Below, one piece after another: positions 6,884 through 49,944 of a stretch of 64,000 nucleotides of DNA (the stretch's first letter is position 1; each line of letters begins with the position of its first letter). The translations under genes were made by a program, and so were the position numbers. The notes beneath the pieces are model-generated. The model worked only from the letters and a program-made list of their open reading frames with translations, did not search any database and was not told the origin of the DNA. The stretch lies in assembly GCF_009931435.1 (NCBI RefSeq), contig NZ_CP043414.1; one strand, written 5' to 3'. Origin of the DNA: Escherichia coli (lineage in GTDB: Bacteria > Pseudomonadota > Gammaproteobacteria > Enterobacterales > Enterobacteriaceae).

Positions 6884-6884
6884 C

Positions 6885-15733: not shown

Positions 15734-15785
15734 AAAAATGGCACCTTATAAAGCGCCATTTGAAACTGATGGCAAACGCAACATT

Positions 15786-15885
15786 GCCTGATGCGCTACG
15801 CTTATCTGACCTACACGTTCACTGCAATCTATTGGATTTGAACGGTTTGTAGGCCGGATAAGGCGTTCACGCCGCATCCGGCATG
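15786..15885. repeat. REP/BIME palindromic element cluster
   Basis: gcctgatgcgctacgcttatc... and gtaggccggataaggcgttcacgccgcatccggca match the classic REP consensus. Confidence 0.65.
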
Positions 15886-15913
15886 AATAAAGCCTACGTT
15901 GTCTACAATATGA

Positions 15914-20783: not shown

Positions 20784-21665
20784 ATGACACGACAAAAAGC
20801 AACGCTCATAGGGCTAATAGCGATCGTCCTGTGGAGCACAATGGTAGGATTGATTCGCGGTGTCAGTGAGGGGCTCGGCCCGGTCGGCGGCGCAGCTGCT
20901 ATCTATTCATTAAGCGGGCTGCTGTTAATCTTCACGGTTGGATTTCCGCGAATTCGGCAGATCCCGAAAGGCTATTTGCTCGCCGGGAGTCTGTTATTCG
21001 TCAGCTATGAAATCTGTCTGGCGCTTTCCTTAGGGTATGCGGCGAGCCGTCATCAGGCGATTGAAGTAGGTATGGTGAACTATCTATGGCCCAGTCTGAC
21101 AATTCTCTTTGCCATTCTGTTTAATGGTCAGAAAACCAACTGGCTGATTGTACCTGGATTATTATTAGCCCTGGTCGGTGTCTGTTGGGTGTTAGGCGGT
21201 GACAATGGGTTACACTATGATGAAATCATCAATAATATTACCACCAGTCCATTAAGTTATTTCCTGGCGTTCATTGGCGCTTTTATCTGGGCAGCCTATT
21301 GTACAGTAACGAATAAATACGCACGCGGATTTAACGGTATTACCGTTTTCGTCCTGCTGACAGGAGCAAGTTTGTGGGTTTACTATTTTTTAACGCCGCA
21401 ACCGGAGATGGTATTTAGCACACCCGTCATGATTAAACTCATCTCTGCGGCATTTACCTTAGGATTTGCTTACGCTGCGTGGAACGTTGGCATTTTACAT
21501 GGCAACGTCACCATTATGGCAGTAGGTTCGTATTTTACGCCCGTACTTTCGTCGGCGCTTGCTGCGGTACTGCTTAGTGCTCCGCTATCGTTCTCATTCT
21601 GGCAAGGCGCACTGATGGTCTGCGGCGGTTCCCTGCTCTGCTGGCTGGCGACACGTCGTGGATAA
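20784..21665 (+). CDS. yddG: Aromatic amino acid exporter (DMT superfamily)
   Basis: 293 aa, about 10 TM segments. Confidence 0.88.
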   Translation: MTRQKATLIGLIAIVLWSTMVGLIRGVSEGLGPVGGAAAIYSLSGLLLIFTVGFPRIRQIPKGYLLAGSLLFVSYEICLALSLGYAASRHQAIEVGMVNYLWPSLTILFAILFNGQKTNWLIVPGLLLALVGVCWVLGGDNGLHYDEIINNITTSPLSYFLAFIGAFIWAAYCTVTNKYARGFNGITVFVLLTGASLWVYYFLTPQPEMVFSTPVMIKLISAAFTLGFAYAAWNVGILHGNVTIMAVGSYFTPVLSSALAAVLLSAPLSFSFWQGALMVCGGSLLCWLATRRG

Positions 21666-21924
21666 AATTATTGTCGGGTCATAGCACCCGGCAGTTAACC
21701 CGCTAAATTACGACAATAATAAAAAATAAATTTCAAATACCAGTAATTCACCTTATATCTCATTTCGACTTCGATCACATATCGACAAATAATATTATTT
21801 CATCTAGTATTCTCATTGTTTTTAATCACCATTCTATTTTAAAAACAGTATGTCATTTGTAAATGACGCCGTTTAAAATTCGTTTAGAAAATAGGTTTAA
21901 CGATAATTAAAAGGATACTGTTAA

Positions 21925-33544: not shown

Positions 33545-34221
33545 TTCAGTATCTGAACGTCTTTTTTTACGATATCTACCCGTACATTTGTGCGACGGTG
33601 TTTTTCCTTGGCAGCTGGCTGCGCTATGACTACGGGCAGTATACCTGGCGCGCCTCCTCGAGCCAGATGCTCGATAAACGCGGGATGGTGATATGGTCGA
33701 ATCTGTTCCATATCGGCATTCTGGGGATCTTCTTCGGTCATCTGTTCGGCATGTTAACACCGCACTGGATGTACGCGTGGTTTTTACCAGTGGCAGCGAA
33801 ACAACTGATGGCAATGGTGCTCGGCGGTATTTGCGGCGTGTTGACGTTGATTGGCGGTGCAGGACTGCTGTGGCGCAGGCTGACAAATCAGCGTGTGCGT
33901 GCTACTTCCACCACGCCGGATATCATCATCATGAGCATATTGCTGATCCAATGTTTGTTGGGGCTAAGTACCATACCGTTTTCAGCACAGTATCCTGATG
34001 GTAGCGAAATGATGAAACTGGTGGGTTGGGCGCAAAGTATCGTCACTTTCCGTGGAGGATCGTCAGAAATGCTTAACGGCGTAGCGTTCGTCTTCCGCCT
34101 GCATCTGGTATTGGGAATGACCATCTTCCTGCTCTTTCCGTTCACCCGACTGGTGCACGTGTGGAGCGCGCCTTTTGAGTACTTTACTCGTCGGCACCAG
34201 ATTGTGCGCTCGCGGCGATAA
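33541..34221 (+). CDS. narV: Respiratory nitrate reductase 2 gamma (cytochrome b) subunit
   Basis: 226 aa, 5 TM segments, overlaps narW by 4 nt. Confidence 0.92.
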
Positions 34222-34300
34222 TTCTCCCCCTGGCCGGATAGCCCTTCGCTCTCCGGCCACTTGCAGGCTATGATAGTTCTCCAGCCACAGGAGAACGTTA

Positions 34301-35194
34301 ATGAAACCGCAGGTGTACCACGTCGATGCTTTTACCGCTCAACCGTTTCGCGGCAATTCTGCCGGTGTTGTTTTTCCCGCCGATAAACTTAGCGAAGCGC
34401 AAATGCAGCTTATCGCCCGCGAATTAGGTCATTCGGAAACTGCTTTTCTGCTGCACAGCGACGACAGCGATGTGCGCATTCGCTACTTTACGCCAAAGGT
34501 TGAAGTGCCAATTTGCGGTCACGCAACGGTGGCTGCGCACTATGTACGTTCAAAGGTATTAGGTTTGGGAAATTGCACGGTCTGGCAAACGTCGCTGGCA
34601 GGAAAACATCGCGTGACTATCGAAAAGCACAACGATGATTATCGTATTTCGCTGGAACAAGGTACGCCGGGCTTTGAGCCACCGCTGGAAGGTGAAACAC
34701 GTGCGGCGATTATCAACGCATTGCATCTTACCGAAGACAATATTCTGCCGGGTTTGCCAATCCAGGTGGCAACCACAGGACACTCAAAAGTGATGATTCC
34801 GTTGAAACCAGAAGTGGATATCGATGCCCTTTCGCCTGACCTTGCTGCGCTGACCGCAATCAGCAAGCAGATTGGCTGCAATGGTTTCTTCCCGTTCCAG
34901 ATCCGCCCAGGCAAAAACGAAACCGATGGTCGTATGTTCTCGCCTGCCATTGGTATTGTGGAAGATCCGGTGACCGGCAATGCCAATGGCCCGATGGGTG
35001 CATGGTTGGTACATCACAACGTATTGCCCCACGATGGCAACGTGTTGCGTGTTAAAGGCCATCAGGGGCGCGCATTGGGGCGTGACGGCGTGATTGAAGT
35101 GACGGTGACAATTCGCAATAACCAACCGGAGAAAGTCACCATTTCCGGCACGGCGGTGATTCTTTTCCATGCTGAATGGGCCATTGATTTTTGA
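34301..35194 (+). CDS. yddE: PhzF-family isomerase-like protein
   Basis: 297 aa ORF. Confidence 0.85.
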   Translation: MKPQVYHVDAFTAQPFRGNSAGVVFPADKLSEAQMQLIARELGHSETAFLLHSDDSDVRIRYFTPKVEVPICGHATVAAHYVRSKVLGLGNCTVWQTSLAGKHRVTIEKHNDDYRISLEQGTPGFEPPLEGETRAAIINALHLTEDNILPGLPIQVATTGHSKVMIPLKPEVDIDALSPDLAALTAISKQIGCNGFFPFQIRPGKNETDGRMFSPAIGIVEDPVTGNANGPMGAWLVHHNVLPHDGNVLRVKGHQGRALGRDGVIEVTVTIRNNQPEKVTISGTAVILFHAEWAIDF

Positions 35195-35201
35195 TACCGT
35201 T

Positions 35202-35277
35202 GCCTGATGCGCTTCGCTTATCAGGCCTACAACCGGGCTAATGTGGGCCGGTTGTAGGCGTTTACGCCGCATCCGGC
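35202..35277. repeat. REP/BIME element between convergent yddE and nhoA
   Basis: gcctgatgcgcttcgcttatcaggcctac and gtaggcgtttacgccgcatccggc match REP consensus. Confidence 0.65.
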
Positions 35278-35289
35278 CCCTGGCACAAA

Positions 35290-36135
35290 CTATTTCCCCG
35301 CCTCCGGATGCGTATCAAACGCCGCCATCACCAACGCCAGTTCATCCACAGTAAAGCCATGCTTTGCGTCATCTACGCCCAGACCAAACTGCTCCTGCAT
35401 CACGGCATATAACGACGCCACATCCGCTAGATTTCGCTGCTCCACTGCATGTCCATTTTCATAATGGGTGAAATGAAAATTGGTCAGTGTCAGTTTTCCA
35501 CCGTCCGGCAAATGGCGGCACATCAGCAAATGATGGCGAAAATGCGATTGCGGCCAGTGCGCCGACCAGAAATTACCCATCACATAATCACTTTGTTGTT
35601 GTTCACAGAGATCAAAACGGTACATCGACTGCCAGTGCTGATGATGATTAAACTGCAAAATCCAGTCGTTCCCTTCCTGTAACAGCCGATATTCGCCATG
35701 TGGCGTTGTTTGCGCGATATCCGCCACTAAACGAATCGGCGCAGTCAAAGTCTGCCCACCGAAACCGACATCGGCAATCCAGTGTTCGCCTTCCAGCTCC
35801 ACCAACAACAAACGATGGGTACGCGGCGGTAATGCTGGCGGATTAGATAACACTACGCGCCCTAACAGACTGCGTACCTGAAAACCCAGCTCGCGTAACA
35901 CCCGCTCAAACACGCCATTCTGCTCAAAGCAGTAACCACCACGCCGGGCGAGCACCAATTTCTCTTCCAGCGATTGATCATCAAGCTGCATTTCTCTCGG
36001 CAGCAAAACATCGAGATTTTCAAATGGAATGGTGCAATTGTGTTTCAGGTGTAATGCGCGCAGCGTTTCGATATTGACCGCAGCCGCTCCCGACCAGTTA
36101 ATGCGGGTAAAATAGTGATTCAGAATGGGCGTCAT
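35290..36135 (-). CDS. nhoA: Arylamine N-acetyltransferase (N-hydroxyarylamine O-acetyltransferase)
   Basis: 281 aa ORF MTPILNHYFTRINWSG... Confidence 0.9.
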   Translation of the reverse strand: MTPILNHYFTRINWSGAAAVNIETLRALHLKHNCTIPFENLDVLLPREMQLDDQSLEEKLVLARRGGYCFEQNGVFERVLRELGFQVRSLLGRVVLSNPPALPPRTHRLLLVELEGEHWIADVGFGGQTLTAPIRLVADIAQTTPHGEYRLLQEGNDWILQFNHHQHWQSMYRFDLCEQQQSDYVMGNFWSAHWPQSHFRHHLLMCRHLPDGGKLTLTNFHFTHYENGHAVEQRNLADVASLYAVMQEQFGLGVDDAKHGFTVDELALVMAAFDTHPEAGK

Positions 36136-36309
36136 CAGGCGTTTCCGTTTGTGGTTTTCTCAATTTATAACCTGGAATAGACGCCGCACCGGCTATTTTG
36201 TGCGATCGCGGACATGCATCACGTTCGCAAATCGCCAATCCCGTTAATTTCGTTACTTATTGCGTTACGAGCTACGCTTTTAAAACAACCTTCTTAGCGA
36301 GGCGATACC

Positions 36310-36879
36310 GTGAGCCGATTCATCCCCGTCGAATTACACCATGCCAGCCGTCTGTTAAACCACGGCCCCACCGTTTTGATAACAACTTTTGATGAAAAAT
36401 CACAGCGACGTAATGTGATGGCTGCGGCCTGGTCGATGCCGGTGGAGTTTGAACCGCCACGCATAGCGATTGTGGTAGATAAATCGACATGGACCAGGGA
36501 GTTGATTGAGCGTAACGGTAAATTTGGCATCGTTATCCCGGGCGTTGCGGCAACTAACTGGACGTGGGCGGTGGGAAGTGTGTCGGGTCGTGAAGAAGAT
36601 AAATTTAATTGCTATGGCATTCCGGTTGTGAAAGGTCCGGTGCTTGGATTGCCGCTGGTTGAAGAGAAATGTCTGGCATGGATGGAGTGTCGATTGCTAC
36701 CAGCGACTTCTGCGCAAGAAAAATACGATACGCTATTTGGCGAAGTGGTATCGGCAGCGGCAGACGCACGAGTATTTGTCGAAGGCCGCTGGCAGTTTGA
36801 TGATGATAAACTCAATACGTTGCATCATTTAGGTGCTGGCACGTTTGTTACCAGCGGGAAGCGAGTTGCCGCGGGGTAA
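36310..36879 (+). CDS. yddH: Flavin reductase-like protein
   Basis: 189 aa, GTG start. Confidence 0.85.
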   Translation: MSRFIPVELHHASRLLNHGPTVLITTFDEKSQRRNVMAAAWSMPVEFEPPRIAIVVDKSTWTRELIERNGKFGIVIPGVAATNWTWAVGSVSGREEDKFNCYGIPVVKGPVLGLPLVEEKCLAWMECRLLPATSAQEKYDTLFGEVVSAAADARVFVEGRWQFDDDKLNTLHHLGAGTFVTSGKRVAAG

Positions 36880-37270
36880 AGAATCATATGCAGCAACCAA
36901 GTTGCTTAAGCAATGTTTCCATATGAGTTAAAAGATATTTTATCTCACGATTGCATATTTTTAGTGAAGATTAATTTATCCTCACCAACATCATAGTAAT
37001 TGCGTATTATCGCCTCATTGATAAAGCCCTATTTTGTATAAAATGCGCGGGCGGCACTAAAATCGATATGGCTAGAGATCTCTACTAAAAGTAGTCTTGC
37101 GTGATTGGGACAGGTCAAGAAAAAGCAGTTTTGCAGTTTTTTATTTCAGGGCGCAGTTGCGAAAATTGAATACCGTATGGACTAATGTGAGAAAATTCCG
37201 AGGTACGACTGTTTTGATATAGTGGACAATCAAGCGTCTCGAATTAACAATGAATTTCAGGTGCCAAGCC

Positions 37271-37993
37271 TTACAATTTGTAGCATGACGGATATAGGAC
37301 AACATTAGGAAATCGGACAGAAAATTCATTATAATAAAATGACAACTTATCTCTTTCTCTCACGTTCTGTGAAATTTCACAAAAGTATAAACTGAGCCAA
37401 TATGCCTTTATATATAAAAAATACTCATGTTTATTATTATCGGAAAAAGCCAAGATTTGATTAAGGCCATCAAAAATATCTTTCTCATGATCTATATGTA
37501 CTCTTGATGATTTTACAATATCTTTTAATTCGCGGTAAATCTTATTAAATAGCGCAACCGATTCACTGTTATTGAATCCATAGTTGATAAAAAGACATGA
37601 TTTAACATCCGATATTAGCAAGTCGTCATAATTCATCTCTATTTCAGACAATTTCACGATATACTCAGCTATAGTATTACTTTGTAAGGACTCAACAACT
37701 GACAGTAAAACAGATGGATGCAATAATATTTCAAGAAGACTTTTATCGATATTTTTATACACATTTATTGCAAATTCATCATTCGTCCCATCGATGGTGT
37801 CAGATATTGAAAAAAATACATAATCGGGGAGTTCATACCACATATTAATTTTAATAATATCACGACACATATCTTCTAATTGTTGTAATCTATTACCTTT
37901 ATTCATAACAACCTTAATATTATATGGAATCTTTGGCGGAATCTTCTTAACTCTGAGGAATTTTACTAAACCTTTGTTAGAGAAAATATGCAT
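37271..37993 (-). CDS. Hypothetical protein, AT-rich orphan ORF (no recognisable domain)
   Basis: 240 aa ORF, very low GC, no signal peptide or motif recognised; directly downstream of ISAs1 remnant. Confidence 0.45.
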   Translation of the reverse strand: MHIFSNKGLVKFLRVKKIPPKIPYNIKVVMNKGNRLQQLEDMCRDIIKINMWYELPDYVFFSISDTIDGTNDEFAINVYKNIDKSLLEILLHPSVLLSVVESLQSNTIAEYIVKLSEIEMNYDDLLISDVKSCLFINYGFNNSESVALFNKIYRELKDIVKSSRVHIDHEKDIFDGLNQILAFSDNNKHEYFLYIKAYWLSLYFCEISQNVRERDKLSFYYNEFSVRFPNVVLYPSCYKL

Positions 37994-38069
37994 ATCACTG
38001 ACAGCGTGTTATTAATTCACTCTGGTGTTATATAACAAAAATATCCCCTCCTGTTTTCACCTCTTTGTA

Positions 38070-39280
38070 TTCATGATAGTTAAGGGGAGTGCTAACTTAA
38101 TATAAACACCCAGGGCAAGATTACGAAAGCCCGCTCCCCGCAAGGACTGACGCCAGATACTTTCTGTCCATGGTTGCTTTTCGCATCTTACGTCTTAACC
38201 CTGCTTGAATACCTCATCATTCGTCAAAATATTAATAGCGATGTGCCGTATCCCTGAAAATAATTCTGCTGCATTTCCTCTTCTTATTTTGCAGTCGTCT
38301 TCATTCATTACCACGTCCAGACGCCAGTGCAGCTTATTCTCCACGTGCCAGTGGTTTCGGATTGCTGTGGCGAACTTCTCTGCGGTTAAATCAGCAGAAC
38401 TGATATAATATCTGACCGTCATTTCTGGCTCTTTCTTTTGTTCTGCTATTATTGACCGAAAGGAGACTGCCACGCATAATTTCTTCAGACCTTTCCATTC
38501 AAACGTGAAATCAATAAGTTCATCAGGGACATCGCAAACAATGTGAAGACGGATTTCTTCTCTGCCGTGACTCTTTTCACTAATTGCGTAACTGTCATGC
38601 TCTGGATTATTTAATTCTTTCAGCGGAAATTTTTCCTCGAAGCCTTTATTTAGCCGCCCCTGGTTTCCTTTTACAGCGAATAAATAATCACCTCCCTGTT
38701 TTTGTATCTTCTCTGCAATATCTTTCTGGCAACCCATCGCATCAGTTGTGATGATTTTTCCTTTAATATCCAGCATGTTAAGAAGTTCTGGGATAGCTGT
38801 AATCTCATTGGATTTCTCATCCGTCTTGATCTGTCCGATGACCAGACTGTGCATTGTTGAGAACGCACTAATGACATGAATCGCTCCCCTGCGGCGACTC
38901 TTGTCATAAGAGTGCCGGAGCGTTTTTCCATCAATTGCAATGACGTCTTTATCATCTGAAGAATGGCAGTCACGCATCCAGTTAATAAAGCACTCATGAA
39001 ATTTTGCAGGACTGATACAGGATACAACTTTGGCAATGATATCGTGAACAGGAATACCATTTTCAAAATCACCATATCACTTCAAAAAATCGAGATGTGT
39101 TTCCCAAAAATTCGCTATATTTTCCTATCCTTCTGCACCAAAAATAACGGCACAAATAGCCAACAGTAGAATATCCGATAATTTATGCTCCACTTTCCAG
39201 GCTTGTCTGTAATCGGGGATAACAGAAATATGTTCCATCAATTTTTTAAGTACCATTTTGTTCTCCTTAATTATGTAAGG
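38070..39280 (-). mobile_element. ISAs1-family (H-repeat) insertion sequence, boundaries approximate
   Basis: Transposase-homologous sequence flanked by imperfect inverted repeats (about 38073-38087 atgatagttaagggg vs 39263-39277 ctccttaattatgta). Confidence 0.5.
38195..39238 (-). pseudogene. ISAs1-family transposase (H-repeat-associated protein) inactivated by two in-frame nonsense codons
   Basis: Hand translation from ATG 39238: [37 protein letters not shown]-stop-ENIANFWETHLDFLK-stop-YGDFENG..., continuing in frame into track ORF 38195-38977 ([11 protein letters not shown]...). Confidence 0.8.
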
Positions 39281-39562
39281 AGTATTTGATCATGTATAAG
39301 CAATAAAAAACAGCTTCAGGTAATGAGGAATATCTCAATTTTTAAACATAAAATGCGAATTGTTTAGTACAAAAAGTGTACTTCTGATGATCTTTCCCTG
39401 CCTATCAGCCCCCCTGCTGAACCCTGCACAATATCCAGTCCCTTGCGGGTCATGTCACCCTGCCGCGCCGCCGGTTTTCCGCTCATGGTTTATTCCTTTT
39501 CTTTTACCTTACATGTCCATACAAATAGTTACCTATACTGTCTTTGAATATTGCCCTACCAT

Positions 39563-40012
39563 TTAAAGCCCACCTATTTCTTGCGACAGAAAAGGGATTT
39601 CTTTTTTAATCCAATCTATCATTTCATTTTTTTCAAAACATACGTTAATGCCATTCACACTGCCACATTCACCAAAACCATCAAAATAAATTTCACATTT
39701 ATTATTTTTATTCGAAACAATGTCAACCCCCCATCTTATATCGTTATTCTCCTCCTTCCTGAAATACTTCATTTGCAATAAATCAATTATCTCACCAGCA
39801 TAAAAATCGCTAACCCCATTCACCACCACTTTATGTTTGTATATTCTCTTGAGACCTTCCTTGCTAAGCGGGGTTAAGGTGGTAACATATGCTGGAAGAT
39901 TAATTATTTCTATCGTTTTCACACTATCTATTCCACACAATTCATTCACTCGCCCCATCCCCAATACCGAAGCAGAAAATAGAGACAATAAAACCATCAA
40001 ATATTTCATCAT
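39563..40012 (-). CDS. Candidate Rhs immunity protein with N-terminal signal peptide
   Basis: 149 aa; starts 12 nt after Rhs stop; hydrophobic N-terminus MMKYLMVLLSLFSASVLG; AT-rich. Confidence 0.5.
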   Translation of the reverse strand: MMKYLMVLLSLFSASVLGMGRVNELCGIDSVKTIEIINLPAYVTTLTPLSKEGLKRIYKHKVVVNGVSDFYAGEIIDLLQMKYFRKEENNDIRWGVDIVSNKNNKCEIYFDGFGECGSVNGINVCFEKNEMIDWIKKEIPFLSQEIGGL

Positions 40013-40024
40013 AAAAAAATCTCA

Positions 40025-43000
40025 CTATTCTGGCGTGCCATTTATTGTTGCCGTCTGCGTTGGTGTATTCACACGATAATACACTCCATTATATGCTGTT
40101 CTGGTACACTCACCTAAAGTTTTCGCCGCATGCTGTTCAATTAAAGTGATAACTCTCGCCTCTTCTTTATTTTTATATTGTTCATCCGCACGTCTCACAA
40201 GCCCCATATAACCATCCTTATCAATAAGATATAAGTGCGCATGAGCAAACTCATGCCCCAAACCTAATGCAGGTGATTGTGATTTCGATTTTAAATCAGT
40301 TGAACAAAATAAAGCCGCCTTACCATTCCAATATATAGTCATTTTATCCGGGTCAAATCTAACGTCGGTTTCATCAATATACTCTATCTTTATGGTTTCT
40401 TCAGAGCTTGATAAAAAATCTATAGCTTCTTTCATTCGTGAATCTTGTTTTAAATACTCAACAGCCTGATTAAAATCACTTGGATCACCGTTAACATGGA
40501 ATTTTAAACCCAAAGAATCTATAAACCGAACAGGGTTTAATGGATATTTATACAGATTCCATTCACCTCTTAGCCCGATTGGATCCTGGGTGATATACCT
40601 CCCCTGTAGCGGGTCATAGTACCGGTTCCGGTTATAATACAGCCCCGACTCCTCATCGTGTTGCTGCCCTGGCAGACGGTACGGCTGGTGCATGTGATGC
40701 GAGTTTTCCTCATTCAGCAGGTTTCCCCACTCATCATACTCCCCGCTCCACGCCGTATTGCCGTCTTCGCTGATGAGCGCCAGCGGCAGGCCCCGGTGGT
40801 CGCAGTGATACAGATGCAGCGTGCGTGCCGGTGTGTATTCCGGCTCCACCTGTCTGGCCAGTTGCTCCACCGTCAGCCCGCACTGCGCAAGCCACGCCCG
40901 GCTTTCACTGCTCACGCGGTCTGCCCGGATTTCTTCCTCCAGCCTGTCCAGCATCCTCACAAGTTCTGCCGGGAACACCACACCGTGCCCGTCCTCACTC
41001 CCTTCCTGCTGCAGCTTCTCCGCCAGGCTCCGGCGCTGCGCTTTCTCCCGCTCGCCGTTCTCTGTTTCGATGCGGATGAGCGGCGTGAAGCTCCCAGGCT
41101 GGTAGACCGTCTGGATACGTGTGGTGTCGGTCTGTACCGTCGTCAGCCGGTCACCGTCCCACCCGTACCACGTTACCTCCGGTTTACGCGACAGCGACAT
41201 CCACCCCGTCAGGTCACGCTCCCGCCGCCATACCCGTTTCGCCATTCGCCGTCCCAGCGGGTCGTAGAGGTAGCGGCTCTCGACCAGTGGCTCGCCATGC
41301 TGTATCCGCGTGTAGAACACCAGGCGTGCTGGCTGTCGTAGTGGTAGTGGTGGGTCCGCTCGTCGTCCGTCCGTATCACACCCGCCGGGATGCGGTCCGT
41401 CTTCTCCGTCAGCCTGCCGTATTCATCGTGGCGGTAGACATAGTGCGCATCCTCCGCGATGCGGTTATCCGGCCACACTGTGAGTGTACTGTCCGGGTGC
41501 AGCTCCGGGTCCGGCAGCCGGTTGCCCGCCGGGTCCGTGGCATACGGGATGCGGATGTCCAGGTCCGGTGCGAGGGTGCGCACGCTCTCCAGCCTGCCCG
41601 TGGCACTGTAGCCGTATTCCCGCGTCTGTCGCGGGCCGCTGATGCGCACCAGGTCGCCGTTGTCATTCCACCCGTAGTCACGGTCATACACCAGGCTGTT
41701 CAGGTGCTGACTCTGTAACTGACCTGCGGGGGTGTATGTGCTGGTCAGTTCGTATGCGGAATTACTGCCTGCCATGCTGCCGAAGCTGCGCACCGTCTCA
41801 CGGTGCAGCCTGTCCCGCGTATACTCGACCAGCGGCGTCCCGCCCAGCTTCATTCCCGCCAGGTAACCGCTGCCATACGTCAGCCACTCCACCGGCGGCA
41901 GGCTGTCCGGCGTGACGCGGTTTGCCAGCCCCTGTTCGTTGTATGCCTGTTTCGTCTCATGCTGCCAGAGCAGTTCCTCCGTCTCCGGGTTATGCACCGT
42001 CTGGCGCTCGCCAGTCAGACGGCCCTTGTCGTCATAGCCATAGTGGACGGCAACACGGTGGCCTTCGCTCAGGTGGCTGATTTCTCTCAGCCAGCCGTGG
42101 CCATCATACTGCCACTGCTCTGCCGGTTCGCCGTTCACCGTGCGGTGCGTGATGCGGTCCGATTCGTCGTAGTGCCAGAGGGTGACAAGCCCCTCATCTT
42201 CACTCTGCGTGAGTTTTCCGGTCAGGTCATAGTGGTAACGTTGCGTCCGCCCGTCAAAGCCGCGCTGCTGTACCAGCCGGTCCAGCGCATCGTAGGTAAA
42301 CTCACTTCGGCTGCCGTTCTCGTTAGTCAGCGTGGTGACACGTCCGGCAGCATCATACTCCATACTGCGCGTCAGCCCGCCCTGCGTGGTACTGACCGCC
42401 TTTCCCCACGCATCGTACTGTGTCTCACTCCGGTTGCCATCCGGGGTGATGACGGCGGTCAGGTCGCCTGCGGCGTTGTACTCATACTGCGTTTCACGGC
42501 CCTGTGCGTCTTTCACCGAGGTTAACCGGCCACGGTTGTCATAGCGGCGGTAAAGGCTGATACCTTCCTCGCGGTGAACCGCCGTCATCTGGCCGAAGCG
42601 GTCGTATTCATAGCGGGTCTGGTAGCCCGAGCAGTCGGTGAAGGCCAGCAACTGCCCGTAGCGGCTCCAGGTCATCTGCCGGGTGCTGCCCGTCGCATCC
42701 GTTGTCGTCGCCGGTAACTCACTGTGCGGATTATCATAAGCATACCGGATGACGTCCCCGCTGCGCGATGTCTCCGTTACCAGCCTGTCCCGCTCATCAT
42801 ACGCCCGGCGGCTCTCCAGCCCGTCCGGGGACACCACCGCCGTTAACTGGTTCCCGTCGTTATAGTAAAATTTCGTCTCCCGCCCGTCCGGCGTGGTGAT
42901 ATCCGTGATATCGCCGGACACCACATTCAGGCCGTACTCTGTCCGCCGTCCCGCCGCGTCCGTCTGTGCCGTGAGCCTTCCTGCCGCGTCATACCCGCTG

Positions 43001-44277
43001 TGCGTGACGCTGCCGTCCGCCAGTTCTTTTTTCACCACCCGCTTCAGCCCGGCCCCGCCTTCTGTATGCAGCACCTCTCGCCGGTTCAGGCTGTCCGTGA
43101 TGGTGATGCGGTCCTGCTCATAAAGATAGCGATAGCTTAACCCTGCCGGGTTCAGCTGCTCCACCACCCGCCCGGTATCGTCGTAGCGGTAGCGCATCTC
43201 CGGCCTTCCCGCATAACGGTGCCCCACCATCCGGCCCGGGTGCTGCGCGTCATACGTGAAAGCGCGCACCTGCGTATTGCTGCGGTCATATACCGCCAGC
43301 AGTTCACCGGCTTCCGTATACGTGTAACGCGCCAGTGGCGCACCGGGCAGATTCTCCGGGTATGCCGGGTCGTGCATCAGCCACACCGCCGAAAGACGGA
43401 TGCCCCTGTCGGGGCCGTATTCCGTACCGGGCAGTGTGTCGGGGAACGCTGAGGCTGAGAGAGGGCGGGAACGGTCAGAAGAAGATAGCGAAGAGGTGCG
43501 GGCCTCTTCCGCACGCTGCGCCTGCGTGGTCAGCACCAGACGGAACTTCCGCCCGGCACCGTCCGTCACGCTGGTGATTTCCCCAGCCAGGTCACCGGCG
43601 GCCTCACGCCGGTACGTCAGCGTCCGCCCGAAGCGGTCCGCCAGCCCGGTAAGCACCCGGTACGGCGGCAGCGGCGCTGGCAGTACGTCCTCAGCACCCG
43701 GCACCCGCTCACTCCACCCCAGTATCCACCACGACCCCTGTGCGCTGTTGGTCGCCAGGTAAAGATGCGGGCTTAACCGGATATCCGGCGGCAGCGCCCC
43801 CCACAGTCGCGCCAGCGTGTGGCCGTCCGGCTGCGCTGCCTTACCACCGCGCACCAGCCACATTGACTCGCTGCGGCTGTACACCGCCTCCCCCGGCAGC
43901 AGCGGCTCAAAGTGAATGCTCCGCCCGCCGTTGTCGTTGAGTATCAGTGCGTCATCACGTAGCTGTAAGCGGATATCCGAAGGCGCTTTCCAGCCGGGGC
44001 CGAAAACGCCCACCGGGGCAGGCGTCCTCGTCCGGTAGCTGCTGTAGGTGCGGGAGAGAATGAACGGCAGCGGGCCGGGCAGCGCAAGGTCCGTCTCGCC
44101 GGGCAGCACCTTCGCCCCCAGCAGCGGATTTACCGGGTTGCCCGAAGTCATCCCGCCCGGACACACCGAGCACGCCACGCCGGTGGGCGCGCCAATTCTT
44201 ACACCTGCCGAACCCTGGACAATGGGACCGCCATACTGAGTCATATCTCCCTGACGCGCTGCTGGTTTTCCGCTCAT
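40025..44277 (-). CDS. Rhs-family polymorphic toxin (PAAR-like N-terminus, YD-repeat shell, variable C-terminal tip), interrupted by an apparent -1 frameshift near 41325
   Basis: Track ORFs 41209-44277 (1022 aa) and 40025-41320 (431 aa) overlap in different frames; YD repeats throughout; DPIGL core-end motif; C-terminal tip contains HEFAH. Confidence 0.85.
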
Positions 44278-44343
44278 GATTCAATTCCTTCTTCTGTTTA
44301 TTTTTAATGCTTGTTTGTTACTGAATACCGAACAGGTACGGGA

Positions 44344-46452
44344 TCAGTACTCTCTCATATCCGGCGTATCCTGCTTTTCATCAGGGGTCTTCGGTGGGGA
44401 TTTCGAGGCTGCACAGTTCCAGTTAATCAACAGTGAGTCACCATTAACCTGCTCCTTACCCTGCAAATGAATTTTTGTGCCGTTGAGAAAAATTTGTCCG
44501 TCCTTAGTCAGCACCAGCCTTGCCTTACCACAGCAGAGTTCCAGATGCTCACCGGCGGAGTAAATCGCGGTCTGCCCGGTATCATCCTTTTTCGTTTTAC
44601 CAACGGTGAAGGTAACGTTATTTCCGACTTTGACGTCATAACCCAGCCCGACCATCAACGATTTATGCAAACCGATCTGCGAGGACTGCATCAGGGCCAC
44701 CGAGGTGTTCATAATGCCACCTACCGTCGTCTGATACGCCACGCCCACAGTCAGCGCACGAACAAGTCCAATCGTTTCCACCTGAACAGAGCCCACTTTA
44801 ATGATCTGGTTACTGCCCACCGTCTCTATCTGGTTAACGCCCACCGTCTGTATCTGATTGTTGGTAACCGCAATCACCTGATTGTTGCCGATGGTCTCAG
44901 CATGGTTGTTTATCACATCCGTGGTGCGGTTATTCAGCACCTCGGTGTTCATGTTCTTCTGCGCGTGGATGTAGACCTGTTCTTTCCCTGTCGCATCGTC
45001 AAACTTCAGTTCATTAAACCCGCTGCCCTTATAGGTTTTCGAACGAATGGTCATCTGCGTCTTTGTTCCCGGCAGGCTGCCGGGGGTGCGGTTTTCCTGG
45101 TGGTAGGTACGCCCCATAATAATCGGCTGGTCCGGATCGCCGTTGAGGAAGTCCACAATGACCTCCTGACCCACACGCGGTATCGCCAGGTTACCAAACC
45201 CGGTGCCTGCCCACGCCTGTGCCACACGGATCCAGCATGAACTGTCCTGGTTTGACGGGTTATAACGGTCCCAGTTAAATTTCACCCGCACGCGGCCATG
45301 TTCATCACAGAAGATTTCTTCTCCTGCCGGTCCCGTCACGACGGCGCTCTGCGGGCCATCCACCAGCGGTTTCAGCAACGGCTGTGGCCGCCATGTTCTG
45401 TCTGCCGGTATTACCGCAAAGTGGTTATTCAGCGTGGTACCTGAACCCCTGCGTCCCGGCACCGCCTGCGGCTGCTCGCCGTGCAGTTCACTTGCCACCA
45501 CCTGCCATTCCCGGTTCAGGTTCGCCTGCGGATGCCCCGTCAGCGCAATTCGCCGTCCCGGCCATATCTCCGGAGAACGGCTTGTTCCGCGCGCCACTTC
45601 TGCGTTGTTTCGCCAGCCATCCATCTGCCAGCGGGCAAAGTTCTGCCCGTGGGCACCCTTGAAACGTCCGGGGTAGTCATACACTTCATACTGTGTGCGC
45701 TGGTAATCCTGGTACTGGCCTTCCTGATCAAAACGCCCTGCCCAGCCGGGTCGTTTAAAGGTGTAGTCCTTGGTCACCACGGAAGAAGGGCGGATTTGTG
45801 CGCTGTAGCGGAACTGGCTGATGCATAGGGTGCTCACCTCGGTACGGGTGTTCGGATTCCAGGGGATCTCAAAGGACTCCGGCAGATAACGCACGGTGTC
45901 GCACAGGACCAGGCTCTGGTCGGTACTTTTTTGCGCGTGCTCCTCATAAAAGAAGATGCCTTCCTCCGCCGCCATCCGGCACAGGAAATCGTAATCGGTT
46001 TCGCCGTACTGGACACAAAACTCACGGGAAGGATGCGGCTCGCTGAACAGCGGACTCCACTCGGTCACCCCGTTTTCTTTCAGGATCGTCGCGAGTATGC
46101 TTTCGATGTCCTCATTCTGGAAGATACGGAAGTTCTGGCGCAGCCCTGTGCGCCACAGCGGTGGGCACACCTTCATGCTGTACAGCATCTGGTTTTTGTC
46201 GTTCTCCCCCAGTTCAAACCAGGTCACCACACCTTTTACCCGGCGCTGTACGTCATCGCCCTGCCATACCGTCAGGTAGGCCATTTTGTCGAGGATCTGC
46301 GGAAATTCAAGGGAAAGAAACTGCTGACTGACCAGAGAAAGGTCGAGGGAAAAAAGTGAAGAGAGTGACTGGGTGAGATGAAAGGAAACCACCGCAAACG
46401 CGTCCGGTGGCAGGCCGTCCACTTCCAGCGTGAAACGTAATCCGGTTGACAT
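44344..46452 (-). CDS. vgrG: VgrG-type T6SS spike protein
   Basis: Track ORF 44344-46488; start at ATG 46452 (MSTGLRFTLEVDGLPPDAF...); gp27/gp5-like; Val-Gly repeats (VGVNQIETVGSNQIIKVGSVQVETIG). Confidence 0.9.
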   Translation of the reverse strand: MSTGLRFTLEVDGLPPDAFAVVSFHLTQSLSSLFSLDLSLVSQQFLSLEFPQILDKMAYLTVWQGDDVQRRVKGVVTWFELGENDKNQMLYSMKVCPPLWRTGLRQNFRIFQNEDIESILATILKENGVTEWSPLFSEPHPSREFCVQYGETDYDFLCRMAAEEGIFFYEEHAQKSTDQSLVLCDTVRYLPESFEIPWNPNTRTEVSTLCISQFRYSAQIRPSSVVTKDYTFKRPGWAGRFDQEGQYQDYQRTQYEVYDYPGRFKGAHGQNFARWQMDGWRNNAEVARGTSRSPEIWPGRRIALTGHPQANLNREWQVVASELHGEQPQAVPGRRGSGTTLNNHFAVIPADRTWRPQPLLKPLVDGPQSAVVTGPAGEEIFCDEHGRVRVKFNWDRYNPSNQDSSCWIRVAQAWAGTGFGNLAIPRVGQEVIVDFLNGDPDQPIIMGRTYHQENRTPGSLPGTKTQMTIRSKTYKGSGFNELKFDDATGKEQVYIHAQKNMNTEVLNNRTTDVINNHAETIGNNQVIAVTNNQIQTVGVNQIETVGSNQIIKVGSVQVETIGLVRALTVGVAYQTTVGGIMNTSVALMQSSQIGLHKSLMVGLGYDVKVGNNVTFTVGKTKKDDTGQTAIYSAGEHLELCCGKARLVLTKDGQIFLNGTKIHLQGKEQVNGDSLLINWNCAASKSPPKTPDEKQDTPDMREY

Positions 46453-47272
46453 AGCAACCTCCGTGAAAATGAATAATAATCCGCACATATTGCATGTACA
46501 ACATGTCGGACGGATGAGATAAGCGAGTCGACATCTGGCGTTACCGGGGAATATCAGAAAAATGTCATGGTTATGTGATGATTTAGTCTGGGATTTTACT
46601 TCAGAGAAACGGGTGTCTGTTTAGTCAACAAAATAATCACAAACGCAACGGATGGGTTCTCGACGTTATTCACGACAGGCTCGTACATTACAGCGAGTAA
46701 TAAAAAACCTGATATGCAAAGTCAAACCAATATTCATAATGTCTTTTTATTCACAAAAATAAATAATTCAATAACAATCATTGAAATGAATGATGGTTTG
46801 TATAAGGAATATACGCTACCGCCCCACCCTGATAACATGATCTGCACATTGCCATCTTAACGTCGTTAAACACTGGCTTAATAGTGGATATTTCAAATTA
46901 GGAATTTATTAAATTCACCTGATGAATATCATAAGCAAATAGCATAGAAAATAATGACAACTCCCCCGAGGGGACCATTTCCAAAGCACTGCAACACCAC
47001 CTGGTGCCCGGATGATCTTGCTTCAGTGGTAAGAGTACCTGATTCATTGTTCCCAAAATGGTGTTTTCCCCTGCCCCTCCAATAACGTGCAGCTCTCACG
47101 TGATAATCTATTGATTAGGTTATATTAAGAATCAATATTTGAAATACATCCATTTTCTTGAATAAATCAACATATTTATTTATCAATTGCTGTTTTAGCT
47201 CTGACTCATCAAACTCTCCATATTTTTCCTACAGAAAATCGCGAATAAATACAGAGAACGCCATTTATCCTT

Positions 47273-47485
47273 TTAGCATACCTGCCGGATATTTTTATTT
47301 GTATTAATATTAATTGCATCTCCAACTCCGAGCATATCCATTATTAAAGACATTTTGAGATTATAGAATGCCTGTGATAACAACTGAAACATCTGCACAA
47401 TGTGAATAGTTAGTTTCTTTTCAGAGGAAATGAAATAGACAAGCTGAATGAAAGGGAGAGTGATATAAATTAAAAAACATAACAT
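47273..47485 (-). CDS. Small hypothetical protein (YncH-like by position and length)
   Basis: 70-codon ORF in AT-rich region; only ORF in the 1 kb gap; identity by position only. Confidence 0.3.
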   Translation of the reverse strand: MLCFLIYITLPFIQLVYFISSEKKLTIHIVQMFQLLSQAFYNLKMSLIMDMLGVGDAININTNKNIRQVC

Positions 47486-47560
47486 GAATCTAATTAATTA
47501 CGTCCATCATTGTGGATAAAGTTACTGAATAATAAATAACATAATATTCTGGTATCCCAC

Positions 47561-48178
47561 TCAAATAATTTCATTCCTTTTTAATACTTCTTGTAATTTC
47601 GGTAACTGACATACAGCATCAGCGATCGCACTGATATTCGTGGCATTATCCTGAAACCATTCATGCCCAGGCCCCCATGTGCGCATAGTGCAAAGATAAC
47701 AGTCCACCAGCGTTAGTTGCTCACCAAACGCATAAGGTTCAGCGGTCAATTGTGAATTCAGCCAGATATAAAGCGATTTACGATATTCAATAACATTCTT
47801 CTTTAACTGTTCGGGTGCGTCAGGAGCCCAACGCTCAGGGTAATCGGCGAAAGTGAATGTTGGATAGACATTAGCAACCAGCCAGACCAATAGCCGTTGA
47901 AACTGCTGACGTTCGGCGCGCCTAACCGGTGGCGCAAGGTCCGGGCGACGATCGAGAACCATCAATGCAATCGCCGCTGTCTCCGTCATAATCTCGTCAT
48001 TTTCCAGCGCCAGTGTCGGAATCTGACACAACGGGTTCAGGGTTTTCAATAACTCGCGTGAAGTTCCCTCGTGGTCAAAACCACTGACATCAACGAACTG
48101 ATAAGGAATATCAGCCAGTGATAGCATCAGCTCACTGATTGTAGAGCCCCATCCGGGTACGCCATACACCTTAATCAT
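47561..48178 (-). CDS. yncG: Glutathione S-transferase homologue
   Basis: 205 aa ORF MIKVYGVPGWGSTISELMLSLADIPYQF... Confidence 0.85.
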   Translation of the reverse strand: MIKVYGVPGWGSTISELMLSLADIPYQFVDVSGFDHEGTSRELLKTLNPLCQIPTLALENDEIMTETAAIALMVLDRRPDLAPPVRRAERQQFQRLLVWLVANVYPTFTFADYPERWAPDAPEQLKKNVIEYRKSLYIWLNSQLTAEPYAFGEQLTLVDCYLCTMRTWGPGHEWFQDNATNISAIADAVCQLPKLQEVLKRNEII

Positions 48179-48444
48179 ATGCCCCTCACAATCTTTTAAA
48201 GATTAAGTGTAGGACAGTACACAGGTTAACCAGCAAAAGGATTTGTCATTTTTTCGTCAGTTGTATTATTCCCCTTCAGGATTGTAAGGGGATGTTTTGC
48301 ATCGTTTATCGATAACGGGTAGGATGCTGCGCCGATAGTTTTATACCCATAAAGAATAATGGTGATAACTATCATCGCCAGGATGAATAAACATTGTTCA
48401 TGGCAACTTATATGACTTTTTCATTAAAGCAATCAGGGAGAGCA

Positions 48445-49944
48445 ATGAGTAAACACGACACCGACACTTCAGATCAACACGCCGCGAAACGTCGCTGGCT
48501 TAATGCCCACGAAGAGGGGTATCACAAAGCGATGGGCAATCGCCAGGTACAGATGATCGCCATTGGCGGCGCGATTGGCACCGGCTTGTTTTTAGGTGCA
48601 GGAGCCCGACTGCAAATGGCGGGGCCAGCACTGGCACTGGTCTATTTAATCTGCGGCCTGTTTTCATTTTTTATTCTGCGTGCATTGGGTGAGCTGGTGC
48701 TACACCGCCCTTCCAGTGGCAGTTTTGTCTCTTATGCCCGTGAGTTTTTGGGTGAGAAAGCCGCTTACGTTGCTGGCTGGATGTACTTCATCAACTGGGC
48801 GATGACCGGGATTGTTGATATTACCGCTGTCGCTCTGTATATGCATTACTGGGGCGCGTTTGGCGGCGTGCCGCAGTGGGTCTTTGCGCTCGCTGCGCTG
48901 ACCATCGTTGGCACCATGAATATGATCGGTGTGAAATGGTTTGCGGAGATGGAGTTCTGGTTTGCGCTTATTAAAGTGCTCGCCATTGTGACCTTTTTGG
49001 TCGTGGGTACAGTGTTCCTCGGTAGTGGTCAGCCGCTGGATGGCAACACCACTGGCTTTCATTTAATCACCGATAATGGCGGCTTCTTCCCCCATGGTTT
49101 GCTACCTGCGCTGGTATTGATTCAGGGCGTAGTGTTTGCTTTTGCCTCCATTGAAATGGTGGGTACAGCTGCCGGAGAATGTAAAGATCCGCAGACCATG
49201 GTGCCTAAAGCGATTAACAGTGTGATTTGGCGTATTGGCCTGTTTTACGTCGGCTCCGTGGTGTTGCTGGTTATGTTATTGCCGTGGAGCGCGTATCAGG
49301 CGGGGCAAAGTCCGTTCGTGACGTTTTTCTCTAAACTGGGCGTGCCTTACATCGGCAGCATTATGAACATTGTGGTGCTGACCGCTGCCCTCTCCAGCCT
49401 GAACTCAGGTCTGTACTGCACCGGACGTATTCTGCGCTCAATGGCGATGGGCGGTTCCGCACCGAGTTTTATGGCGAAAATGAGTCGTCAGCATGTGCCG
49501 TATGCCGGGATTCTGGCGACACTAGTTGTGTATGTCGTCGGCGTATTCCTCAACTATCTGGTGCCGTCGCGCGTATTTGAAATTGTGTTGAATTTCGCGT
49601 CGCTGGGAATCATCGCATCATGGGCGTTTATCATTGTTTGCCAGATGCGCCTGCGTAAAGCGATTAAAGAAGGCAAAGCAGCGGATGTCAGTTTTAAACT
49701 GCCTGGCGCGCCCTTCACTTCCTGGCTGACATTACTGTTTTTGCTGAGCGTCCTGGTGCTGATGGCGTTCGATTACCCGAACGGAACTTATACCATTGCG
49801 GCGCTGCCGATTATCGGTATTCTGCTGGTTATAGGCTGGTTTGGTGTGCGCAAACGCGTTGCTGAAATTCACAGCACTGCGCCAGTCGTCGAGGAAGATG
49901 AAGAACAACAGGAAATTGTGTTTAAGCCAGAGACGGCGAGTTAA
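48445..49944 (+). CDS. ansP: L-asparagine permease (APC family)
   Basis: Track ORF 48394-49944; start ATG 48445 (MSKHDTDTSDQHAAKRRWLNAHEEGYHKAM...) gives 499 aa, SD gggagag upstream. Confidence 0.9.
   Translation: MSKHDTDTSDQHAAKRRWLNAHEEGYHKAMGNRQVQMIAIGGAIGTGLFLGAGARLQMAGPALALVYLICGLFSFFILRALGELVLHRPSSGSFVSYAREFLGEKAAYVAGWMYFINWAMTGIVDITAVALYMHYWGAFGGVPQWVFALAALTIVGTMNMIGVKWFAEMEFWFALIKVLAIVTFLVVGTVFLGSGQPLDGNTTGFHLITDNGGFFPHGLLPALVLIQGVVFAFASIEMVGTAAGECKDPQTMVPKAINSVIWRIGLFYVGSVVLLVMLLPWSAYQAGQSPFVTFFSKLGVPYIGSIMNIVVLTAALSSLNSGLYCTGRILRSMAMGGSAPSFMAKMSRQHVPYAGILATLVVYVVGVFLNYLVPSRVFEIVLNFASLGIIASWAFIIVCQMRLRKAIKEGKAADVSFKLPGAPFTSWLTLLFLLSVLVLMAFDYPNGTYTIAALPIIGILLVIGWFGVRKRVAEIHSTAPVVEEDEEQQEIVFKPETAS

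Follow-up and report, generated by a model that had tools for sequence, protein, structure and literature searches.

How the 10.7-kb block between yddH and yncG in Escherichia coli has been put together is the question raised by a 64-kb window of contig NZ_CP043414.1 (the window being the whole stretch of DNA that was analyzed; all positions refer to it). The block (36,880-47,560) carries an rhs gene, a vgrG gene, an insertion sequence (IS) and an open reading frame (ORF) without relatives of assigned function, and GC-rich and AT-rich modules alternate along it. A sequence-only reading had explained this alternation by modular assembly, in which the toxin tips of Rhs proteins and their immunity genes are swapped. 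Comparison with other strains supports this explanation, but it restates the C-terminal displacement and tip exchange model that is already published (Jackson et al., 2009, PMC2935791). The segment 39401-40600, which comprises the stub of a second rhs gene (rhs2), the immunity gene and the toxin tip, is 99.5-100% identical to strains 1190, GF43 and 19KM1831, whereas the adjoining ~700 bp of Rhs core show merely 84-91% identity to the copies of the same strains. The block is very probably the E. coli RhsE or Rhs 'position 6' locus and constitutes, in the same reading, an auxiliary type VI secretion system (T6SS) effector island.

In Table 3 of Jackson et al. (2009, PMC2935791), position 6 is given as yncG...pptA and position 1 as dnaQ...fadE; rhsE is listed at b1455-b1461 in the E. 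coli W genome paper (PMC3032704). In the window, yncG and yncH lie on one side of the block and yddH-nhoA-yddE on the other, as expected for position 6. The order narI-yddE-nhoA-yddH ... yncH-yncG-ansP-yncE is kept across complete E. coli genomes. pptA is absent from the window, where an AT-rich orphan block stands in its stead; homology to pptA-type genomes stops at 36925. The rhsE of K-12 we take to be a different pseudogene, which is truncated at its N-terminus. The layout, obtained from the ORF listing and from family scans (Pfam, NCBIfam), is the following:

36310-36879, plus strand: yddH, flavin reductase-like (Pfam Flavin_Reduct, E=7.9e-22); left flank, outside the variable block
36926-38110, minus strand: orphan block, GC 0.32, in place of pptA, with the orphan ORF 37271-37906 inside
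38111-39400, minus strand: degenerate ISAs1-family element (ISEc1 or 'H-repeat', ydcC-like), 1290 bp
39401-39486, minus strand: 5' stub of the second rhs gene, 28 codons, 86 bp, cut by the IS
39563-40012, minus strand: putative rhsI-type immunity gene of the 'dsORF-h1' type, 149 amino acids, intact
40025-40570, minus strand: Rhs C-terminal toxin tip of the h1 type, an M91 or botulinum-light-chain-like zincin with a HEFAH motif
40571-44277, minus strand: Rhs N-terminal region and YD-repeat core, GC 0.64, frameshift near 41327
44344-46452, minus strand: vgrG, T6SS spike, 702 amino acids, intact
46453-47272, no strand: AT-rich spacer between yncH and vgrG, GC 0.37, 820 bp, breakpoint at 46542
47273-47485, minus strand: yncH, DUF5445, 70 amino acids (Pfam DUF5445, E=1.6e-38), GC 0.305
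47561-48178, minus strand: yncG, GST family (Pfam GST_N_2/3); right flank, outside the variable block
beyond yncG, plus strand: ansP

The positions of yddH and yncG agree with their earlier designation as the genes that bound the block. Their presumed conservation holds for yddH, whose label is present at all reference loci compared, but yncG is not universal. It is missing from some genomes, e.g., Ecol_542, where the order is yddH-ISEc1-ansP without yncH or yncG. Homology of the Ecol_542 type picks up again at 48295 and that of E. coli 042 at 47563. yncH accompanies cargo of the vgrG-Rhs type and is missing at loci of the 042 and Ecol_542 types.

The module of h1 tip and immunity gene is found at two chromosomal loci, namely in the main T6SS cluster beside yafV/fadE in strain 1190 and at the yddH-yncG site in GF43 and 19KM1831. 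In strain 1190 the gene order is tssBCEF-hcp-vgrG-rhs-immunity-rhs2-...-ISAs1-yafV-ivy-fadE, which is 'position 1' of Jackson et al. When the window is aligned to this strain, 101 of the 707 positions between 40637 and 41343 differ (14.3%), after which ~100% identity is reached again; on either side there is no difference in 236 bp and a single one in 356 bp (Fisher p=6e-14 and 7e-18). The nearest relative of the core changes between 200-bp slices. Positions 40,601-41,000 are nearest to the cores of downstream rhs2 genes (93-96.5% identity vs 84-88% for rhs1), and 41,201-41,400 shows 99-100% identity to position-6 cores of the e4 type. Over 40,600-41,400 the best E. coli match among those listed reaches ~94.5%, with 3 records in the 95-99% band. 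Because the nearest relatives differ from slice to slice and no listed match exceeds ~94.5% over 40,600-41,400, the rhs gene is, judged by these alignments, a fine-scale recombinant, and the tip-immunity cassette is its most recently shared piece.

A second change of identity lies at the other end of the island. Compared with strain 2020CK-00188, the window is 99.98-100% identical from 46542 rightwards to at least 62,000, and 96-99.8% identical over 38 kb to the left. By this difference the island appears to separate chromosome segments of different recent ancestry, with a recombination junction at 46542.

The frequencies of the modules were determined in a population sample of 5426 complete E. 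coli genomes. At least 80% of 35000-49500 is covered in just 1787 of them. yncH, vgrG and the Rhs core are present at the site in about 2555 genomes (~47%), and in nearly all of these the homology to the window starts at 40533-40550, i.e., at the boundary between tip and core. These genomes therefore hold another tip and immunity gene. The h1 tip occurs at the yddH-yncG site in fewer than about 70 records, and the orphan block in 660 genomes (12%; full length in 193), always as a single copy. The cargo at the site differs accordingly between strains: AR_452 has two complete rhs genes, GF43 and 19KM1831 have vgrG-rhs-immunity-rhs2-ORF-ISEc1-pptA, E. coli 042 has PAAR-VgrG-M35 peptidase, Ecol_542 has ISEc1 alone, and sulfatase and GGDEF genes are found in other strains. 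Thus, the block is neither uniform in composition nor fully conserved across E. coli, and is strongly polymorphic instead.

These data bear directly on the idea that the whole 10.7-kb block was acquired as one unit, with a GC heterogeneity brought along from the donor and no swapping within E. coli. The genes vgrG-rhs-immunity-rhs2-...-ISAs1 are found together in this order at two loci, so that whole cassettes and not tips may move, and position 6 is ancient, older than E. coli, by the inference of Jackson et al. (PMC2935791). However, the modules differ in frequency (orphan block 660 genomes, vgrG and core ~2555, h1 tip at the site fewer than about 70), identity changes abruptly inside a single gene, and many tips are found on homologous cores at one site. 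Acquisition in a single step is for these reasons very improbable.

The rhs gene matches Pfam RHS_repeat (E=9.5e-74, in 8 stretches), DUF6531 and the RHS core-end domain (E=2.7e-17). The core-end motif (PxxxxDPxGL) occupies residues 1227-1236 once the frame is repaired, and the codon of its D is at 40585. The N-terminus is presumably PAAR-like; in Pfam it gave DUF6531 and no PAAR match. In comparison with the intact gene of GF43, a 1-bp deletion near 41327 (CC -> C, CAGCACCGCCTGG -> CAGCACGCCTGG) splits the gene into the ORFs 41209-44277 and 40025-41320; the toxin and the final 270 residues of the core are thereby cut off from the shell. An in-frame deletion of 9 bp vs GF43 is present at about 43499. 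No intact frame runs from the N-terminus to the toxin. By descent the gene is a Rhs/YD-repeat toxin, but its reading frames make it a pseudogene in the window, barring a sequencing error at the deletion.

The vgrG gene upstream is preserved. It matches TIGR03361 (E=8.5e-189) and Pfam Phage_GPD, Phage_base_V and Gp5_trimer_C, and is 98.4% identical to the vgrG of the T6SS cluster in strain 1190. Its start at 46452 lies behind a GGAGG ribosome-binding site and agrees with the 2109-bp reference annotation. From rhs it is separated by 66 bp that contain no gene for an Eag/DUF1795 chaperone.

The IS belongs to the ISAs1 family (NCBIfam transpos_ISAs1, NF033564, E=2.6e-93; Pfam DDE_Tnp_1) and is 95-97% identical to ISEc1 copies. 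Two in-frame stops and the loss of 1 bp near 38205 distinguish its transposase from that of an intact copy. The terminal inverted repeats are imperfect and agree at 11 of 13 positions (CAGGGCAAGATTA / CAGGGAAAGATCA). No target-site duplication was found at the IS, as the sequences on its two sides, TATAAACACC and CCTATCAGCC, do not form a direct repeat. Because of the two stops and the frameshift, without a target duplication, the element as sequenced is to be regarded as a relic and not as an active mobile element. Its right end is joined to codon 29 of the second rhs gene, after 86 bp of the ORF, whereas in AR_452 the join lies after 41 bp. The truncations are therefore independent, and the IS-associated loss of a downstream rhs gene is recurrent. 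The product of the remaining stub is identical to the N-terminus of GF43 rhs2, and ~4.66 kb, i.e., the remainder of rhs2 and its downstream ORF, are missing in comparison with GF43. The many matches to the IS-rhs2 junction at 89% coverage represent the different junction of the AR_452 type. The left end of the IS abuts the orphan block, and 2020CK-00188 has the same junction; in E. coli 042 ~0.8 kb extra with another small ORF lie between the IS and the orphan block. With rhs frameshifted and the second rhs removed by the ISAs1-associated deletion, the island is probably a decaying toxin locus, in which an intact spike and an intact immunity protein would still be encoded.

Rhs cores are long repeats of near-identical sequence, and a collapsed or chimeric assembly of rhs paralogs could account at once for the frameshift, for the patchiness of the core and for an IS-rhs2 junction that is unique to the window. 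The assembly of the closest relative, 2020CK-00188, breaks in the locus and has an rhs fragment on a 3-kb contig, frameshifts occur in several reference assemblies, and the IS junction of the window type lacks a high-identity match elsewhere. However, both 19KM1831 and GF43 cover the contiguous arrangement from yncH to the immunity gene completely (100%), the base lost at the frameshift belongs to a CC pair and not to a long homopolymer, and the breaks in composition and homology fit known biology. Such an artifact would yield neither AT-rich modules nor a polymorphism in the population, and we consider it hardly likely.

The alternation of GC-rich and AT-rich modules, from which the sequence-only reading had started, was confirmed. 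GC contents range from 0.29 to 0.64 within the block: 0.322 for the orphan block (36926-38109), 0.400 for ISAs1, 0.344 for the immunity gene, 0.366 for the Rhs tip, 0.638 for the Rhs core, 0.549 for vgrG, 0.370 for the vgrG-yncH spacer and 0.305 for yncH, with 0.29-0.37 for the AT-rich modules overall, the orphan ORF included. The values for yddH and yncG are 0.512 and 0.474, respectively. In 500-bp windows outside the block the mean GC content is 0.498 (sd 0.057; 1st-99th percentile 0.321-0.574), and 45% of the 500-bp windows of the block lie outside this percentile range. The vgrG gene, which had been grouped with the GC-rich modules, is above background, but merely modestly so. The GC content at third codon positions (GC3) is 0.77 in the core, 0.67 in vgrG, 0.27 in the tip, 0.35 in the immunity gene and 0.27 in the orphan ORF, compared with 0.47-0.59 in flanking genes. 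Within the single rhs gene it drops from 0.77 to 0.27 at the DPIGL motif.

Unsupervised Jensen-Shannon entropy segmentation of 30-54 kb gave change-points at 36876, 40566, 44191, 46266 and 47806. The first and last are close to the proposed block limits of 36880 and 47560, and the others lie near the DPIGL codons (40571-40585), the rhs/vgrG junction (44277-44344) and the vgrG start (46452). Six homology breakpoints are nearer to the change-points than random points are (mean 498 bp vs 2136 bp, P=0.003). The ends of the IS are homology breakpoints as well, yet no compositional change-point was detected there in this segmentation. The expectation that the boundaries of the block coincide with IS and compositional breaks therefore holds for composition and fails for the IS, which is internal. 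According to the alignments, the IS is a mark of the internal deletion and of homology breakpoints, not of the outer edges of the block. The least probable of the explanations considered is that coding constraint alone, i.e., Gly/Arg/Asp/Tyr-rich YD repeats vs Lys/Asn/Ile-rich small proteins, produces the GC contrast: YD-repeat proteins are indeed rich in residues with GC-rich codons, and the core also exceeds the tip in GC content at first (0.65 vs 0.46) and second codon positions (0.50 vs 0.37). However, the widest swing (0.77 vs 0.27 in one gene) is that of GC3, on which the encoded residues place little constraint, so that amino-acid content is not the cause, and the compositional change-points coincide with homology breakpoints.

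The preferred explanation, exchange of tip and immunity modules, can be put as a sequence of events. Each part of the patchwork would have its own history: the GC-rich core of rhs would exchange sequence with paralogous cores by recombination, vgrG would form a part with moderately high GC, and the AT-rich tip, immunity and orphan genes would come from a common pool. Homologous recombination may have put, or kept, the h1 cassette on a core of different ancestry, with crossovers via the conserved core on one side and via the 5' end of the next rhs gene or the IS on the other. A deletion associated with ISAs1 would have taken out the downstream second rhs gene and its immunity gene and left 86 bp, either by insertion of the IS into rhs2 and subsequent recombination with a distal ISAs1 copy, or by adjacent deletion in one step. 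Whatever once preceded the orphan ORF would have been lost at the IS. In a later step, the 1-bp deletion would have broken the frame of the main rhs gene.

Several points weigh against this account of a T6SS toxin island shaped by exchange. The rhs gene is frameshifted, so that no toxin function can be claimed for the strain, and the frameshift could be a sequencing error. No T6SS core genes are present within the 64-kb window, which is the scope here. The tip scores 14.5 bits against Pfam PF14891 (Peptidase_M91), below the gathering threshold of 25 bits. For the exact IS-rhs2 junction of the window, no other complete genome gave a high-identity match, so that it has a single sequence as its basis, and the base-by-base comparison covers ~ten reference loci only. 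Ordinary differences between alleles of position-6 cores could account for part of the patchiness, and the direction and order of the exchanges are ones that we infer.

Concerning the nature of the toxin, the tip contains a HEFAH motif; both an HExxH motif and a zincin fold, which are looked for in Peptidase M91, are present. Homologs at 43-45% identity carry PF14891 and are named M91 zinc metallopeptidase. In view of its Pfam score, the tip is best described as M91-like. The alignment of the tip family shows an invariant signature that includes EExRV...ExxAAxxLxExxR, and the AlphaFold model is a confident one, with a pLDDT (predicted local distance difference test) of 94.5 and a pTM (predicted template modeling score) of 0.90. 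A profile search with the tip gave 2,381 cluster representatives, in which the domain is nearly always C-terminal in proteins of 100-3,700 amino acids. This mostly C-terminal position in varied proteins is a hallmark of a polymorphic-toxin domain. The tip of AR_452 is clearly homologous to that of the window. In a PDB sequence search with the tip, the sole match was to the conserved linker after DPxGL of another Rhs protein (8qjc, E=0.018). A protease activity of the tip is predicted from these features, and the substrate of the h1 tip is presumably bacterial.

The ORF for the immunity protein starts 12 bp past the stop codon of rhs. Its product agrees at 128 of 150 positions with a protein of AR_452 that is named 'RHS element protein dsORF-h1' by NCBI. 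By its position and by this match, the 149-amino-acid ORF is the small immunity gene that is to be expected downstream of an rhs gene, its immunity role being putative. The N-terminus (MMK-YLMVLLSLFSASVLG) resembles a signal peptide with a hydrophobic core at residues 4-17, and the protein is probably exported. The signal-peptide-like N-terminus suggests in turn that the toxin acts outside the cytoplasm, in the periplasm or the envelope.

The orphan ORF (37271-37906) encodes 211 amino acids, or 240 if it starts at 37993. No match was found in Pfam, NCBIfam, PADLOC, PHROGs or PDB sequences. The AlphaFold2 model is all-helical with a pLDDT of 67.6, and a Foldseek search of the PDB with this model returned nothing (best E=1.3). 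The family is narrow, with members in E. coli, Shigella, E. albertii and Pseudocitrobacter, and has no Pfam domain. Some of its records are labeled 'aminopeptidase', a label that found no support here. The Pseudocitrobacter homolog (63% identity) is located 17 bp downstream of a cassette of DUF2169, Tox-PAAR-like, 272-amino-acid and EndoU_bacteria genes. Since this is the slot expected of an immunity gene, the most likely reading of the orphan ORF is an orphan immunity gene, to which we give about an even chance. In E. coli 042 and E. albertii the neighbors of the homolog are not EndoU-like, and the Pseudocitrobacter context is the sole basis for the immunity idea. The E. albertii homolog resides in a 3.3-kb island of small unannotated ORFs with 26-34% GC between cusS and nfrB (6750-10000 of the extracted locus). 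The cusS-nfrB site is Rhs 'position 4' in E. coli (Jackson et al., 2009, PMC2935791); no rhs remnant was detectable beside the E. albertii copy.

As a side observation, the EndoU effector of the Pseudocitrobacter locus (3235-4400) is split into two overlapping ORFs of 272 and 135 amino acids. This PAAR-linked effector is, by its ORF structure, probably frameshifted itself.

Combining both proteins, one may propose that the h1 tip is a miniature zinc protease resembling the botulinum neurotoxin (BoNT) light chain or NleD, delivered by the T6SS as an antibacterial toxin of the periplasm or envelope, and that the orphan ORF provides orphan immunity against EndoU-type T6SS effectors, having outlasted its own toxin. 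This combined proposal is tentative, and we give it somewhat less than an even chance. If it is true, the h1 tip represents a class of Rhs toxin without earlier experiments, with a domain that is C-terminal in more than 2000 protein clusters. The M91/BoNT-like tip with its probably exported immunity protein is the main part of the locus with forward interest. The practical value of the analysis lies in annotation: the island is marked as decaying (rhs frameshift, dead IS, second rhs deleted) with immunity gene and vgrG intact, and two uncharacterized proteins are flagged, i.e., the protease-like tip with its partner and the candidate orphan immunity gene.

Some further observations concern the surroundings. 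The left flank (34000-36925, yddE-nhoA-yddH) is unusually divergent for E. coli, with 91-93.7% identity to four reference strains; against 2020CK-00188 its worst 1-kb bin has 94.4%. The right flank shows 98.8-100%. The divergence suggests either deeply diverged allele classes or imported DNA beside the island. A source of the window other than E. coli, which had been suspected from the 91-93% identity of the nhoA-side flank, was ruled out, as the distal flank is E. coli at 98.8-100%. In the vgrG-yncH spacer, 54 bp (46810-46863) match an unannotated site in an otherwise unrelated database hit at 100% and may be a small dispersed repeat. Rfam scans gave no RNA family in the block or in this spacer, and promoter and terminator scans were not above the shuffled expectation, with promoter-like sites in the spacer at chance level. 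The sole Rfam match in the window is SECIS_3, a selenocysteine insertion element (19912-19970, minus strand, 83.8 bits), which falls within the stretch that matches fdnG in the alignment to 2020CK-00188. Low GC (0.30-0.39) is also found outside the block, at 21500-26000; in the same alignment this second stretch lies between narU and yddG and covers a porin gene as well as genes for a leucine-rich-repeat protein and a hypothetical protein. Between fdnI and yddM, ~144 bp with palindromes similar to repetitive extragenic palindromic (REP) sequences or bacterial interspersed mosaic elements (BIME) (15762-15905, GCCGGATAAGGCGTTCACGCCGCATCCGGCA) are replaced by ~32 bp in 2020CK-00188, a difference that looks like a REP-element indel.

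How does the locus compare with known systems? The IS resembles ISEc1 ('H-repeat', ydcC) in its 1290 bp, 95-97% identity, ISAs1 DDE transposase and terminal inverted repeats, and differs from it by two stops, the frameshift and the lack of a target duplication. In relation to Peptidase M91 (NleD) and the clostridial light chains (M27), the tip is much shorter than the BoNT light chain (~160 vs ~400 amino acids), is fused to a Rhs shell, is paired with an immunity protein and stays below the Pfam M91 threshold. A Rhs-Peptidase M91 (HExxH) in a chaperone-less vgrG island of Shiga toxin-producing E. coli O22:H8 has been described without experiments (bioRxiv 10.1101/2024.03.05.583533), and the characterized metallopeptidase tip of E. 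coli, Rhs-CT1, is reported as Tox-MPTase4, a different domain (PMC6730261). No experimental work on the h1 tip type was found in the literature.

The order of vgrG upstream of rhs with its C-terminal toxin (rhs-CT) and immunity gene downstream is shared with the auxiliary vgrG-rhs islands of T6SS (Ma et al., 2017, reviewed in PMC6730261), from which the window differs by the absence of an EagR/DUF1795 gene and a vgrG-rhs gap of 66 bp. The C-terminal displacement or orphan-tip model (Jackson et al., 2009) is matched by one tip on cores at different loci, a homology break at the boundary of core and tip, and downstream rhs copies as a reservoir; the cassette exchange of polymorphic toxins is a wider likeness (Zhang et al., 2012, PMC3482391). 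However, the simple model moves the adjacent core along with the tip, whereas in the window high identity ends no more than ~50 bp from DPIGL, beyond which the core is similar to other paralogs, those of the rhs2 and e4 types. Additional gene conversion in the core is implied by this.

The closest likeness is to RhsE at position 6 itself (PMC2935791, PMC3032704), with the same site and flanks, a GC-rich core up to the hyperconserved DPxGL, an AT-rich tip, a small downstream ORF, dissociated rhs fragments, an H-repeat (ISAs1) and a vgr gene upstream; strains vary in the same way as to whether the genes are present, absent or pseudogenes. The published description of Rhs elements already includes the GC-rich core, the AT-rich core extension and the GC-poor downstream fragments, the exchange of tips between loci, and the partial clustering of position-6 genes with position 1 (Jackson et al., 2009, PMC2935791), and the work of Hill and colleagues from the 1990s, as summarized there, describes matching Rhs biology. 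Every feature flagged in the block thus falls within descriptions that date from the 1990s onward and were formalized in 2009, and the architecture is already known. The window differs from the RhsE locus in minor points that are specific to it: the orphan block instead of pptA, the second rhs reduced to an 86-bp stub, the frameshift in the main rhs gene and a 3' core segment of mixed ancestry.

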